DNA of 64,000 nucleotides from Candidatus Oxydemutatoraceae bacterium (GTDB taxonomy: Bacteria; Pseudomonadota; Gammaproteobacteria; Poriferisulfidales; Oxydemutatoraceae): contig OZ244717.1 of NCBI GenBank assembly GCA_965218975.1, forward strand, positions 256,001-320,000. Direction: 5' to 3'. Each line of letters starts with the position of its first letter. Positions within the stretch are counted from its first letter, which is position 1. Both the position numbers and the translations under genes were made by a program. Positions 24,762-36,441 of this stretch are shown in pieces. The notes below the pieces were generated by a model. The model was not told where the DNA came from. It was given only the letters and a program-made list of their open reading frames with translations, and made no database searches.

Positions 24762-25952
24762 TTATTTTTTACTTGAAGATGTACCGGATAGCTTGTTCAA
24801 TGCTTTATCTATTAAGGCTATTGCCTCATCAATGTTTTGATCGGAAGTATTAAATCCAAGACTGAATCTGATTGACGACTCAGCCTCATCACTTGTCAAC
24901 CCTATGGCTTTGAGAACATGAGATGGCTCTTGAGTGCCCGAAGCGCATGCCGAACCGATTGATGCCGCAAGACGTGGTTGCAACACATTCAGGATATCAT
25001 GTGCTGTAAACCCCTTGAATCCGATGTTGGCATTGCCCGGGTGTCTGTATTCGACAGGGGGGCCGCACAGCGTCATGGGCCATGACAACGCCAACAGTTT
25101 GTCGACAAATCGGTCCCGGTGTCTGCACAATTGTTCACGCTTATTCCTTGCTTGATCAGAACATAAGTATTCTGCTGCCGCTCCCATTCCAACGCATAAC
25201 GGTGTAGGCAAAGTTCCGGAACGCAGTCCGTTCTGTTGTCCGCCACCGTAGATCAGAGGTTCAATGCTTTCTTGTAAGTCACGACGGATATAGAGCGCGC
25301 CAATTCCCTTGGGACCATATATTTTATGCCCTGAAAGACTCAACAGGTCGGTATCATTTGCAAAGTTTTGCATATCTATCGCAATAGGCGCCTGAGCGGC
25401 ATCACAATGAAAGATGGCGCCGGATTGTCTGATTAAGCCGGATAAATTCGCGATATCCTGTATGGTTCCTATCTCATTGTTTACCGCCATAATCGAGACG
25501 ATCAGCACGTCATCAGTGAGGCTGCGTTCCAAGTCCGGCAGTAAGATGTGTCCGGATTCGTCAACCGGAAGCAATTCGACCTGAAAACCGAGCTGCTCGT
25601 TCAATACGCGCCCGACGGCGAGCACACTCTTGTGCTCAATTGCGCTAAGAAGGATTTTTTTTCTTGCAGCGCCCTCTGCCGCCGCATGTTTTGCTAACCC
25701 TAGCAAAGCTAAATTGTTGGACTCGGTTGCCCCGGACGTGAACACGATTTCATCGGCATCGGCGGCGATCAAGCGGGCAACTTGCTGCGCCGCTTTTTCC
25801 ACAGCGCGAAAACTTTCCCAACCAGGCGCATGATCTGCCGAATGCGGACTGGCATAGGATTCCGAGAAGTACGGACGCATTTCACGCAACACTCTGTCGG
25901 AAACCGGCGTCGTTGCCTGATAGTCAAAATACAGATATTCTGATGCGTTCAT
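24762..25952 (-). CDS. Cysteine desulfurase (IscS/DndA/SspA-like)
   Basis: YFDYQATTP, FTSGATESNN, NNEIG, HCDAAQ, SGHKIYGPKGIG, RSGT, IGSACASG catalytic Cys; likely start MNASEY at 25952. Confidence 0.9.
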   Translation of the reverse strand: MNASEYLYFDYQATTPVSDRVLREMRPYFSESYASPHSADHAPGWESFRAVEKAAQQVARLIAADADEIVFTSGATESNNLALLGLAKHAAAEGAARKKILLSAIEHKSVLAVGRVLNEQLGFQVELLPVDESGHILLPDLERSLTDDVLIVSIMAVNNEIGTIQDIANLSGLIRQSGAIFHCDAAQAPIAIDMQNFANDTDLLSLSGHKIYGPKGIGALYIRRDLQESIEPLIYGGGQQNGLRSGTLPTPLCVGMGAAAEYLCSDQARNKREQLCRHRDRFVDKLLALSWPMTLCGPPVEYRHPGNANIGFKGFTAHDILNVLQPRLAASIGSACASGTQEPSHVLKAIGLTSDEAESSIRFSLGFNTSDQNIDEAIALIDKALNKLSGTSSSKK

Positions 25953-25957
25953 CGGTA

Positions 25958-26028
25958 AGTCTTCAATCTTGAAATATCCTATAATACCAGAGACAGTCTT
26001 CAGGAATATAACCTTGAGACTATAATAC
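25958..26028 (+). promoter_or_regulatory. Divergent intergenic region with two TATAAT boxes
   Basis: TATAAT at 25980 and 26021, each inside an imperfect repeat AGTCTTCA...CTATAATAC. Confidence 0.3.
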
Positions 26029-26053
26029 ATGTTCCGATAACAGGACGACGAAT

Positions 26054-34014: not shown

Positions 34015-34256
34015 GAGTCCGGTTTCTCTGTTCCCGCGTCTTGACCGCGTTGAGACGCGAGGAACCGTGCAGCGGCATTGCACTTGTTGTTTATCTTCTG
34101 TTGTATGTTTGTCGCTGAGATGCGATGCTCTCGTTCATATTCCCGAATATCGTTAATCACTTTGAAGATCTCTTTCCTATAGCCCTCACACCGTTCCTCT
34201 ATCCCGGTGCACTCCTCAAGGATGATCGAGATTATCTTTTTGTCGTTTAGCGGCAT
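34011..34256 (-). CDS. Small protein (81 aa), PbeB-like by position
   Basis: MPLNDKKIISII... preceded by GGAGG RBS; ATGA-coupled to the SMC ATPase. Confidence 0.6.
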   Translation of the reverse strand: MPLNDKKIISIILEECTGIEERCEGYRKEIFKVINDIREYEREHRISATNIQQKINNKCNAAARFLASQRGQDAGTEKPDS

Positions 34257-34272
34257 TTGTCCTCCCTCTCCT

Positions 34273-36441
34273 TTACAAGTACGCGGCGTCAACCATTCTG
34301 TCAATCGTCGCCAGCGGCCCGTCCGTCCGGCCCGCGTTTTTCGCTAGCCGGGCAAACTCCTGCGCCCGATGCAATTCTGAACGTACAAGGCTACGTGCAT
34401 CAGGGTCAAGCTCCTCTTCCATCTTCGGCGGCAAAGCTAGTAAATCGTGAATAATGCTGTGCGTTTTGCCAATATTACTACAAGTGCGTAAAAGGCGTCC
34501 GCGCCGTTGCACCCATTGCCGTTCGACCGTCGTGCTCGCGAGAATGAACGCCTTGCATATCTGCGGGATATTCACTCCTTCGTCGAGCACGCGCTTTGCC
34601 GTCAGCATCTGAATTTCCCCGTCCTGGAAGGACTTGATGATCCGCTTAGTCTGCTCGCGGTTCGCCGTCTCTTCGGCGGTGAGCTGGTGGAATAAGATAT
34701 TCCGGTCGCGCAGCAACCGATTCACGTCGTCGAGCTGATCCGGTCCCTTGTCGGAGGTGTAAACGAGCGTGTGCCGCAGGTTGCCGGTATCCTCTTTATC
34801 AAGCAGAGTCCTCAGCATCGAAACCTTGCCGGAGGCGGTTTCCAGCAACGCGCGCCGATCCCGCAAAAGCTTGGCGAGGTACTCGTCCGGCTTATCTCCG
34901 TCGCTGCGCCAAGCATTCCGCTTGATTTTGCCCGTCAGCTCGAACCAGTCGTCCATTTCGGTGTCTGTCAGGGACACGGGATGGACGTAGTAATCGTATT
35001 CGACAAGACAGCGGCCGATGGCCTCTTCTAGTGCGAAACGGAAAACAATGGGTCCGAAGAATCCGAATAGCGCTTTTGTCCCTTCCTCGTCATACTGACG
35101 TATCGGTGTGGCCGAGAGACCGAGACGATGTTCAAAGAATTCCGGCGGATTCCTGACAAACGAGGCGCGGCCTAGATTGTGAGCTTCATCAGCAATGAGT
35201 AGGCGGTCGCAATCAAACTTCTCAACTGCGACGAGAAATTCTGGAGTGCACAACGTATCGTGACTGACGACGATGACTTCAACATCCGACAGATTGGTAC
35301 GCAGTCGCCGTTTCAGTTTTTGCAGCTCGCGCGCACGCTTCGCCGCACCGCCAGCTGTCGTGAGATTGACCGGCTTTATCCCGAACGGAACGATTTCATT
35401 GCACCACTGTTCAATCAATGGTACATAGGGCGCGGCGACGACGATGAATAGCGGTCTGCGCTCTTCGTAGAGACGGTGTGCGCTGATCATTGAAGTGATT
35501 GTCTTCCCTGAGCCGGTCGCCATTTCCAGAATGCCTCGATACCGGGTCTCGCACCATGCATTGACTGCCTTTCCCTCGTGTTTGAATGGCCCGTCTTCGT
35601 ATCGAAGCCAGCTTGGTATTACGAATTCCGTCTTCGGGACCGGAACGGGCTCGTACAATGCGGGCTCTTCCGCAATGCCGGTTGCGCGCACGTAGAGAGC
35701 ACGCAGATCATCTTCGGTCGGAGGCGATTCGGAGCCGTAGGTGCGCAAGAGACGCTGTCTGATGGCATCTGGCATCGCGATAACGATACAGTTGTCGTCC
35801 TTGTTTTCCCACAGTCGGCGGAACTCGTAATGAAGCTTATCGGTGATGTAATGTTGATTCGAGTCCTGCCATGACCTTGATATGGTGGTCTGTTCGATGT
35901 TCTTCCGAATGCCTGCAAAGGTTACGTTGCTCGAACCGTGCGCCGCGACGACATCGCTACCGTTCTCGAAGAGCCAAACCTTGGGATGAAAGAGAGCATC
36001 TTTCATCAGGGCGGTCCTGATTTCGATTCGGTGCTTCCGAACCAGCCACGTAAGGCATTTTAGCGTGTAGCGTTGTAGTAGGTCTTCGGTGACGATCAGC
36101 TCTTCTAGAATCTTGTCGGCGACCTCTTCGGCTGACTTCAACCCGTCCTCAATTGCGGCTTTATCCTCGGCACGGAGCAGGGGACTCACAACAAGCCGGA
36201 AACTATTTTGCGACCCTGCGATGTAGGTCGCTAGACCCGGGGCAAGCGAAGCTAGTACTTCGCTTGAAAAGAAACCGGTCATGCAATCTACGCTATCCGC
36301 TGCCCGGAATCCCGGAATCAACACTTCCTCGGCAAATGGGTCTGCCGGCAGCATGTAAAGCGGACGGGCCGACCCCAGCGACCGAAGCGTTTGTGTCACC
36401 ACAGTCGCAGTTTTGTCCTGTATTGCCGTATCATGCACCAC
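34273..36441 (-). CDS. PLD/HKD nuclease + SF2 helicase (PbeA-like / PT-associated restriction protein)
   Basis: GFFSS, FHPKVWLF..HGSSNVT (PLD-like); MATGSGKT, DEAHN, GLSATP, LDEGVNIP, QRRGRLLR. Confidence 0.82.
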   Translation of the reverse strand: MVHDTAIQDKTATVVTQTLRSLGSARPLYMLPADPFAEEVLIPGFRAADSVDCMTGFFSSEVLASLAPGLATYIAGSQNSFRLVVSPLLRAEDKAAIEDGLKSAEEVADKILEELIVTEDLLQRYTLKCLTWLVRKHRIEIRTALMKDALFHPKVWLFENGSDVVAAHGSSNVTFAGIRKNIEQTTISRSWQDSNQHYITDKLHYEFRRLWENKDDNCIVIAMPDAIRQRLLRTYGSESPPTEDDLRALYVRATGIAEEPALYEPVPVPKTEFVIPSWLRYEDGPFKHEGKAVNAWCETRYRGILEMATGSGKTITSMISAHRLYEERRPLFIVVAAPYVPLIEQWCNEIVPFGIKPVNLTTAGGAAKRARELQKLKRRLRTNLSDVEVIVVSHDTLCTPEFLVAVEKFDCDRLLIADEAHNLGRASFVRNPPEFFEHRLGLSATPIRQYDEEGTKALFGFFGPIVFRFALEEAIGRCLVEYDYYVHPVSLTDTEMDDWFELTGKIKRNAWRSDGDKPDEYLAKLLRDRRALLETASGKVSMLRTLLDKEDTGNLRHTLVYTSDKGPDQLDDVNRLLRDRNILFHQLTAEETANREQTKRIIKSFQDGEIQMLTAKRVLDEGVNIPQICKAFILASTTVERQWVQRRGRLLRTCSNIGKTHSIIHDLLALPPKMEEELDPDARSLVRSELHRAQEFARLAKNAGRTDGPLATIDRMVDAAYL

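Follow-up and report, generated by a model that had tools for sequence, protein, structure and literature searches.

Does a writer of single-strand phosphorothioate (PT) marks act together with effector genes that have been described beside double-strand PT writers? The question is raised by a locus of Candidatus Oxydemutatoraceae bacterium that lies within the window, a stretch of 64,000 nucleotides (nt) comprising bases 256001-320000 of a complete, single-contig 2.08-Mb genome (OZ244717.1; 99.4% complete). This locus encodes the four proteins of an SspABCD writer and, running towards them from the other side, the four of a PbeABCD effector. Gene identities, intact motifs, the predicted DndE fold of PbeD, conserved adjacency in other genomes and repeated re-assortment of the two halves form the basis for the answer offered here, which is that Ssp and Pbe are probably coupled in function as a horizontally acquired, two-part PT defence system resembling restriction-modification. 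On three points we infer by analogy with published work on Dnd-Pbe and Ssp-SspE systems: the making of PT, the dependence of Pbe action on it and the fate of phage DNA.

Identity of the eight genes

A first-pass annotation made from the letters of the window had described eight intact open reading frames (ORFs) in three units. All eight are present and intact at the positions it gave, and an arrangement with sspA divergent from sspBCD, plus a convergent pbeABCD operon, is confirmed (Table 1). Genes within each operon overlap or stand 6-16 nt apart, and the sspBCD and pbe operons end 143 nt from one another. Family assignments were made with PADLOC, Pfam and NCBIfam hidden Markov models, which matched six of the eight proteins.

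The combination of cysteine desulfurase, DUF4007 protein, large ATPase and PAPS-reductase-like protein had been taken for SspABCD, and PADLOC recognises SspA, SspB, SspC and SspD, each at E<=1e-100 and over nearly the full profile, which is the four-protein composition of a single-strand PT writer. SspC aligned at 1318 bits across 1044 of 1045 profile positions, also matched BrxC (1e-111) and carries a Walker A motif, GPYGSGKSS, and a Walker B motif, ILFVDE. SspB scored 270 bits against the Pfam DUF4007 model (cut-off 27), and an SGGRDS motif lies near the N-terminus of SspD, a protein that is 78-85% identical in many loci of other phyla. SspA scored below cut-off against each of the NCBIfam IscS, NifS and DndA models. 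Its homology begins near residue 56-62 (tblastn matches to relatives begin at residues 30-62), so the true start probably lies inside the 451-codon ORF; the longest ORFs of the divergent sspA and sspB overlap by 64 nt at their 5' ends. The end of sspB overlaps sspC, whose own end overlaps the start of sspD by 8 nt.

The order helicase, small protein, ATPase, small protein had been likened to the PbeABCD layout, and this likeness held: PADLOC identifies PbeA (1e-190) and PbeC (1e-53), PbeD has a predicted DndE fold and PbeB is recognised by position. The PADLOC match of PbeA spans 652 of 672 profile positions, with Pfam matches to ResIII, DEAD, Helicase_C and PLDc_2; against the NCBIfam model TIGR04095 ('dnd_restrict_1') it scored 364 bits, below the cut-off of 600. 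Motifs HPK...GSSN, ATGSGKT and DEAH are present, and H152, K154, GSxN, GSGKT and DEAH are invariant in 22 aligned homologues. PbeA has more than 4000 homologues, the best 120 of which are 75-83% identical and come from very different organisms. The HPK, DEAH, Walker A and SGGRDS motifs that had been named from the letters were found.

PbeC had been called a Rad50/DndD-like ATPase. Its likeness to DndD stood (PADLOC DndD 4e-29, beside the stronger match to PbeC), and it matches Pfam AAA_23 and contains a Walker A motif, but the protein is a member of the CxC clade of ATP-binding cassette (ABC) ATPases and not an SMC or Rad50 protein proper. Systems of the CxC type were reportedly first described by Krishnan et al. 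in 2020. The PbeC start was set to Met24 (34014), where conservation begins (58 rows). Both cysteines of a central CICGE motif (C376/C378 of the ORF) are found in 58 of 58 rows and are invariant in a 31-row alignment. The fusion of an HKD nuclease to an SF2 helicase in PbeA and a CxC zinc hook at the apex of PbeC, both features by which PbeABCD/CxC ABC ATPase systems are defined, are thus present. The PbeC C-terminus (31873-31960) bears a further cluster, CxCx5Cx2C, retained by 98% of the 58 rows and without variation in the 31-row alignment; possibly this is another zinc site, of which no mention was found in the passages of the literature consulted. No DndC, DndD or DndE gene adjoins the window's Pbe genes, so that the adjacent Dnd writer which belongs to the original definition of PbeABCD is absent.

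Linkage of Ssp and Pbe genes in related loci

Related loci were mapped with the window proteins and with the genome's own Dnd proteins. Of the 89 loci in the set, species genomes contributed 8, metagenome contigs 80 (the best among 168) and a plasmid 1. SspB, SspC or SspD genes adjoin Pbe genes of the window's PbeA clade in 59 of the 89, of which 34 are colinear (SspBCD followed by PbeABCD), 21 are convergent as in the window and 4 show other orders. In 27 of the 34 colinear loci no more than 154 bp separate the SspD match from that of PbeA. Plasmid CP099618.1 of a cultured Sphingomonadaceae isolate has all eight genes consecutively in one direction with 4-bp overlaps, annotated in turn as cysteine desulfurase, DUF4007, hypothetical, PAPS reductase, DEAD/DEAH helicase, hypothetical, AAA ATPase and hypothetical. 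Of the 21 loci flanked by 6 kb or more on each side, 17 contain Ssp genes, or 18 when locus L005, with Ssp 7.1 kb beyond PbeD, is counted. By record title the hosts include Alpha- and Gammaproteobacteria, Opitutales, Bryobacterales, Rhodothermales and Vicinamibacterales. The first-pass annotation had proposed that an Ssp-type writer licenses a Pbe-type effector and had tied this proposal to the co-occurrence of the two halves in other genomes. They do co-occur, the comparative evidence supports the proposed licensing, and on that evidence the pairing is not a local accident.

FastTree was used to build a tree of 50 PbeA rows, of which 48 were from the loci and one from the window, with the Dnd-linked PbeA serving as outgroup. 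Along it the class of the adjacent Ssp lineage changes 10 times, and the well-supported branches require no fewer than 7 of the changes. In loci L003 and L006, for example, the Pbe proteins are 73-77% identical to those of the window and SspC only 52% and 28%, respectively. The forced switches indicate that Pbe was re-joined to different Ssp lineages while almost always keeping an Ssp writer, and such re-assortment within Ssp writers is the pattern predicted by functional dependence. Viewed from the writer, a sample of 400 other genomes of the phylum included 12 with SspD; PbeA is adjacent in one of these (directly downstream, 76-bp gap) and about 550 kb distant in a second. The dependence therefore appears to be one-directional, Pbe occurring with Ssp and the reverse being weak, as expected of an effector needing a writer. 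Within the window's own family one relative (G016) has the colinear form, and the other 29 of 30 relatives searched lack this PbeA clade, a distribution indicating that the locus was acquired horizontally. The same relative has a second SspC-like gene (L103:1159-3498; 41% identity over 784 amino acids) about 8 kb from its colinear SspC-SspD-PbeA-C-D locus.

Conserved adjacency might also be explained by two independent neighbours, SspABCD being an orphan writer that has lost SspE or has an epigenetic or redox role, and PbeABCD being self-contained and blind to PT. Passages of Rakesh, Aravind and Krishnan (2024, PMC10853773) report CxC/Pbe systems without Dnd writers in numerous bacteria, and most sspBCD clusters are called 'solitary' in the account of Wang et al. 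(2021, PMC8092258). Convergent relatives hold SspE or a HATPase gene pair where the window has 143 nt, which fits a loss here; one locus (L082) has Pbe without Ssp in its available flank; and the occurrence of SspE beside Pbe in some relatives is the best argument for independence. Set against this are the tight spacing of the colinear loci and the overlapping plasmid genes, the presence of Ssp in nearly all well-flanked loci and the persistence of an Ssp writer through re-assortment, and the 'standalone' CxC systems of the literature may themselves include Ssp-linked ones because the survey was anchored on Dnd. Independence of the two halves is therefore considered unlikely.

Several further points weigh against functional coupling. 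Thirty of the 89 loci have no Ssp gene, 26 of which have a flank of less than 6 kb, and once L005 is resolved the well-flanked exceptions are L008 (a truncated PbeA remnant), L007 and L082, the last having no Ssp within 10 kb upstream and 6.8 kb downstream. In place of Ssp, L007 carries a DndA-DndC fusion and L084 a BrxP-like PAPS reductase. The 89 loci are not independent, with 4 of 52 being exact duplicates in both PbeA and SspD and the metagenome contigs possibly deriving from related organisms; the tree was made with FastTree only, and its Ssp classes are identity bins relative to the window. The Ssp-Pbe locus adjoins a type II restriction-modification (R-M) cassette and transposase remnants, and adjacency within a defence island is possible without functional coupling. 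Relatives that bear SspE already supply Ssp with its classical effector, and Pbe might stand beside it independently; these loci could equally be explained by one writer serving two effectors, a situation cited for Ssp in passages of an EcoSal review (PMC12707154). Rakesh et al. question Pbe as a PT-dependent restriction module and offer a suicide mode as an alternative, as far as the passages concerned go (PMC10853773). A sequencing-run search for the organism returned no RNA run and six DNA runs, four of them with at least 92% of words, from one study.

Accessory modules and a second PT locus

SspE and SspFGH had been named as the usual partners of an Ssp writer. Neither was found here (SspFGH in a weak test with one SspF and one SspG model), but relatives often add SspE or another module beside Pbe. 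A true SspE lies between PbeD and SspD in 7 loci (L001:15060-17372 matches PADLOC SspE at 2e-304); in L005 it is broken by insertion sequence (IS) elements. At L104:9009-16051 SspE is in three pieces, with transposase genes (IS66-family and DDE) and a DruA-like gene between them. A different third module follows PbeD directly in 14 loci and consists of genes for a 790-residue double-HATPase_c protein and a 632-residue protein without a family match (L019, at 14326-18593, and L004, L006, L023, L027, L031, L035, L036, L037, L040, L049, L067, L076 and L082). PADLOC gives only a weak REase_II match for this gene pair, which may be an accessory effector of Ssp-Pbe loci. The minimal eight-gene form is shared by the window, L038, L058, L062, L071 and the colinear loci.

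Two fringe members of this PbeA clade are accompanied by other sulfur writers. At L007:14590-17774 an 811-residue desulfurase-DndC fusion and a DUF262 (Orf5/HEC-06-like) protein are encoded beside the PbeA-clade member, and at L084:3262-4923 a gene for a 553-residue BrxP-like PAPS reductase (8e-82) lies directly upstream of PbeA.

The absence of an SspE or DndB-type protein, noted in the first reading of the letters, extends to the whole genome: DUF262 (PF03235), which SspE combines with DUF1524, gave no match in the complete genome and was positive in 7 of 14 control genomes. A tblastn search with the SspE of L001 likewise found nothing in the window or genome, and the HATPase pair is absent from both. 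A search limited to one model each of SspF and SspG gave no match in the genome, a weak test in which the positive controls gave none either. PglZ and BrxL, which had also been listed as missing, are absent from the locus by PADLOC.

A canonical Dnd-type PT locus, 117 kb from the Ssp-Pbe block, is encoded in the same genome (Table 1). Its DndC (2e-180), DndE (2e-18), PbeA (2e-212) and PbeC (3e-261) are recognised, and its PbeA is 29% identical to that of the window. Since this Dnd locus has its own full PbeABCD, each writer in the genome appears to be paired with its own Pbe. The presence of a DndCDE writer invites the explanation that the window's Pbe serves this distant writer, adjacency to Ssp being irrelevant; with a complete PbeABCD directly downstream of DndCDE, so low an identity between the two PbeA proteins and a window clade that is linked to Ssp in other genomes, this is hardly credible. 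There is no dndA beside the second locus, and it is followed by a gene for a 645-residue protein with RNA polymerase alpha C-terminal, sigma-70 region 4 and HARE-HTH domains; locus and gene together span C1:405614-416203 (L017:7614-18203).

The small proteins PbeB and PbeD

PbeB and PbeD found no match in Pfam, NCBIfam or PADLOC, even at E<=10. PbeD has 1192 close homologues, none of them named, and 223 representative relatives; all 61 members of its alignment were likewise without a Pfam family. The best match of the PbeD profile among PDB sequences was to a designed protein (E 0.027), and hhalign gave it a probability of 0.4% against the genome's single DndE sequence. Compared by hhalign with canonical PbeD, for which a profile was built from the genome's own Dnd-linked copy, it reached 44% against the single sequence and 80% against the profile (E 1.3e-5 over 87 columns). 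An AlphaFold2 model from the 61-sequence alignment (pLDDT, the predicted local distance difference test, 94.7) consists of two strand-helix-helix units followed by long C-terminal helices. Foldseek returned no match to this model in PDB at E<=0.001. VIA-align against 48,161 chains placed DndE first (7x4e_A; Z 8.5, root-mean-square deviation 3.6, 113 of 114 aligned), followed by DndE 5wtu_A (Z 7.5) and a chain of the F-plasmid relaxosome, 9f0x_E (Z 7.0), with the next row at Z 3.9. A double ribbon-helix-helix, TraY-like architecture is given for DndE and its CxC-linked cognates in passages of Rakesh et al. (PMC10853773), and the predicted model has the corresponding two ribbon-helix-helix units with a C-terminal helical extension. 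On the DndE-like model together with the profile match to canonical PbeD, the 156-residue protein is named PbeD.

A DndE fold in PbeD, with PbeC belonging to the sister clade of DndD, would also suit a helper of the writer, in which PbeCD forms a second site-recognition module parallel to DndDE and directs or extends PT or another modification; the EcoSal review states, in the passage concerned, that Rakesh et al. impute such a DNA-recognition role (PMC12707154). In Ssp systems, however, these roles are already filled by SspB and SspC, PbeCD is always accompanied in these loci by the HKD-helicase PbeA, and deletion of pbeC or pbeD abolished defence in an archaeal system, according to passages of Xiong et al. 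(2019, PMC6459918). A role as writer helper is thus highly improbable.

PbeB is the small protein encoded between PbeA and PbeC. Its start was set to Met17 (34256) by conservation across 73 rows. The protein is conserved (26-75% identity over 39 rows) with a variable charged tail at its end, and residues G25, Y26 and E41 are invariant (alignment A4). It was found by tblastn in 79 of 89 loci, the exceptions being L008, L072, L079, L083, L084, L085, L088, L089, L091, L093, L094 and L097; in L085, L088, L089, L094 and L097 there was no match despite room for the gene. An Atlas match to Sp-DndD at 0.77, below trust level, is a lead only.

In a three-chain prediction with PbeC and PbeD, PbeB docked on PbeC only, at an ipSAE of 0.69 in three of three runs with contact agreement between runs of at least 84% and a partner pLDDT of 76-77; the best of three controls reached 0.01. 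The docking mark, attained in calibration by 58 of the 80 solved complexes and by 2 of the 110 mismatched pairs, is a rough guide here since custom alignments were used and calibration was on single-chain pairs. On PbeC the contacts involve residues 190-210, 504-527 and 604-606, close to the ATPase head at the coiled coil's base. PbeB is therefore predicted to bind the neck of PbeC. This predicted contact agrees with the translational coupling of pbeB and pbeC, and also with the finding for the archaeal system that defence cannot do without pbeB, pbeC and pbeD and needs pbeA only in part, as given in passages of the same source (PMC6459918).

A proposed mechanism

In the mechanism proposed for the coupled system, SspA would draw sulfur from cysteine and the PP-loop protein SspD would pass it on, and SspB, through DNA binding, and the ATPase SspC would insert it at a short motif (5'-CpsCA-3' in the cases studied) in a single strand of the host's DNA. 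This route, from SspA through SspD to a single strand with SspB and SspC, follows passages of published Ssp work (PMC9646914, PMC12707154, PMC10853773). PbeBCD would form a scanning complex made up of a zinc-hook ABC ATPase dimer of PbeC, neck-bound PbeB and PbeD as a DndE-fold reader of DNA. On meeting DNA without a PT mark, such as that of an incoming phage, the complex would engage the PbeA HKD nuclease/SF2 translocase, which might then block replication, or nick and cleave the unmarked DNA.

A different use of the same parts would be abortive infection, PbeA cutting the cell's own DNA once a phage factor removes or modifies PbeB, and PT only modulating where the complex is located. Such an outcome is suggested as an alternative for CxC systems in passages of Rakesh et al. 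(PMC10853773); passages on the archaeal system describe no degradation of viral DNA (PMC6459918); and PbeB has a variable charged tail. The escape of PT-modified virus from the archaeal system follows a self/non-self logic, however, and the requirement for PbeB in archaeal defence implies that it is not merely an inhibitor (both from passages of PMC6459918), while the prediction made here gives PbeB a structural role at the PbeC neck. Abortive infection is accordingly regarded as improbable.

More tentatively, and at slightly less than even confidence, Ssp-Pbe may constitute a third, widespread class of Ssp-dependent immunity, in which a Rad50/Mre11-like PbeBCD reads single-strand PT and licenses PbeA, with two orthogonal writer-Pbe pairs in the present genome. 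If so, the specificity for the writer must lie in the fast-diverging PbeB, PbeC and PbeD because two orthogonal writer-reader pairs would operate in one genome, and many 'standalone' CxC/Pbe systems and 'orphan' SspBCD clusters would be halves of Ssp-Pbe.

Relation to known systems

The closest effector is that of DndCDEA-PbeABCD from Haloterrigena jeotgali A29 (Xiong et al. 2019, PMC6459918), which, as far as the passages describe it, has the same gene order and similar sizes (a small protein of 66 residues against 81 here, and a last protein of 152 against 156). The two systems share PADLOC matches to PbeA and PbeC and a PT writer next door, but the writer here is SspABCD, with DUF4007 and a BrxC-like ATPase and of the single-strand type, rather than DndCDE, and unlike canonical Pbe the window's PbeB and PbeD miss all PADLOC models. 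Passages of that report describe a PT-dependent defence in which pbeB, pbeC and pbeD were indispensable, PT-modified virus escaped and viral DNA was not seen to be degraded or cleaved; the accompanying survey searched only around dndCD (PMC6459918).

The four defining parts of CxC ABC ATPase-DndE systems, as given in passages of Rakesh et al. (PMC10853773), are a CxC zinc hook, a cognate DndE-fold partner, an HKD-SF2 helicase and a small protein, and all four are found here. In those passages the partners of CxC systems are Dnd PT genes, cytosine methylases with MTaX1, or none, Ssp appearing only as a separate system, and the small protein is 'mostly disordered', whereas the PbeB described here is conserved and mostly helical in prediction. 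Because the surveys of Xiong et al. (2019) and Rakesh et al. were anchored on Dnd, they could not have seen an Ssp-Pbe pairing.

On the writer side, the four proteins are the same as those of SspABCD-SspE (Gao et al. 2022, PMC9646914, in part), and some relatives of the locus add a true SspE; in contrast, the window genome is without DUF262/SspE, and PbeABCD is the only adjacent effector candidate. SspABCD-SspFGH likewise joins an Ssp writer to an alternative multi-gene effector, which here is Pbe rather than a DndFGH-like trio; in the survey given in passages of that report, 83.9% of 2678 sspBCD clusters had neither sspE nor sspFGH, and further restriction partners were expected (Wang et al. 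2021, PMC8092258). SspB, SspC and SspD have homologues in PT-writing BREX type 4, namely its DUF4007, BrxC and PAPS-reductase components, according to passages of two reports (PMC12839542, PMC12914056), but the locus is without PglZ or BrxL.

The pairing had been put forward as one not known to be experimentally characterised. Passages of papers that name both deal with Ssp and Pbe apart, and no paper pairing the two was found, in a search that lay outside supplementary data, Krishnan et al. 2020 and Xiong et al. 2020, any of which might list it. The catch-all PADLOC label 'DMS_other' may already flag such loci without defining them. In public records PbeA of this clade is a 'DEAD/DEAH box helicase family protein', and PbeB and PbeD are hypothetical. 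Ssp-Pbe appears as a set of known modules in an undescribed, conserved combination.

Genomic setting of the locus

The Ssp-Pbe block is part of an island of foreign-looking DNA, which has a class-I fructose-bisphosphate aldolase gene (18152-19177) on its left and dsrAB/dsrE (from 36954) on its right. From left to right the island contains the type II R-M pair, the transposase remnants and the Ssp-Pbe block, of which the GC content is 50-58%, against 44-48% in the flanks (Table 1). Inverted repeats of up to 166 nt and 91-98% identity (19417-19901 against 23035-24563) stand on either side of the R-M pair, and their arms overlap duplicated remnants of rve transposases, giving a composite-transposon-like layout (19417-24563).

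A 48-nt direct repeat on both sides of the Ssp-Pbe block (24568-24615 and 36699-36746) was considered as an attachment (att) site and rejected, its 31-nt core being present in 45 copies genome-wide and thus a dispersed repeat rather than a specific insertion scar. This dispersed repeat, of about 31 nt or longer, was counted with up to 6 mismatches on both strands of the 2.08 Mb, the window copies being 24585-24615 and 36716-36746; it could be a REP-like (repetitive extragenic palindromic) or MITE-like (miniature inverted-repeat transposable) element or a regulatory site. A scan for promoter-like and terminator-like sites gave 8 against 10.5 expected and 24 against 15.5 expected, respectively, with no clear marker of an operon end.

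To the right of the island (36954-39760) lie dsrA, dsrB and dsrE-like genes, by which the host resembles a sulfur-oxidising bacterium. A weak PADLOC match of BrxP to DsrA (3e-5) reflects a common iron-sulfur region of the sulfite-reductase type and not a defence gene.

Table 1. Features of the Ssp-Pbe locus, its island and the second PT locus (window positions; C1, genome position; aa, amino acids)
Feature	Position	Strand	Description
sspA, cysteine desulfurase	24762-26117	-	451-aa ORF; PADLOC SspA 4e-127, DndA 7e-123; Pfam Aminotran_5 3e-79
sspB, DUF4007 DNA-binding protein	26054-27028	+	324 aa; PADLOC SspB 1e-100; Pfam DUF4007 3e-80
sspC, large P-loop ATPase	27010-30429	+	1139-aa ORF; PADLOC SspC E=0
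sspD, PAPS-reductase-like PP-loop protein	30422-31252	+	276 aa from ATG; PADLOC SspD 4e-136, full profile; Pfam PAPS_reduct
pbeD, predicted DndE-fold double ribbon-helix-helix protein	31396-31866	-	156 aa; last gene of pbe operon, 143 nt from sspD stop
pbeC, CxC-type coiled-coil ABC ATPase	31873-34014	-	713 aa from Met24; longest ORF reaches 34083
pbeB, small protein	34011-34256	-	81 aa from Met17; longest ORF 34011-34304; stop overlaps pbeC start as ATGA
pbeA, single-HKD (PLD-type) nuclease fused to SF2 DEAH helicase	34273-36441	-	722-aa ORF; PADLOC PbeA 1e-190
Second, canonical PT locus of the same genome	C1:405.6-414.3 kb	+	DndC, DndD, DndE, PbeA, 63-aa ORF, PbeC, 124-aa ORF
Type II R-M pair	19976-22298		GC 33%; HEAT-repeat N4/N6 methylase and CfrBI-like endonuclease
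Transposase remnants	23002-24392		

Implications

To a specialist the pairing is unsurprising because these modules mix, and public annotation, with its generic helicase and hypothetical names, hides the window's PbeA clade. How Pbe works is disputed, passages of Xiong et al. (2019) describing no DNA cleavage and those of Rakesh et al. (2024) favouring HKD nuclease action or suicide. A genome as small as this one with two writer-Pbe pairs is a natural system for asking what reads the sulfur mark, and the eight-gene plasmid operon of the cultured Sphingomonadaceae isolate is a compact test object. The frequency of adjacent Pbe among SspD genomes (one in 12, a small sample) is similar in order of magnitude to the 7.3-7.4% published for SspE and SspFGH. 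The Ssp-Pbe unit indicates that the use of Pbe modules is not confined to double-strand Dnd marks, and some of the 'orphan' Ssp writers gain in it a candidate for a third class of effector.

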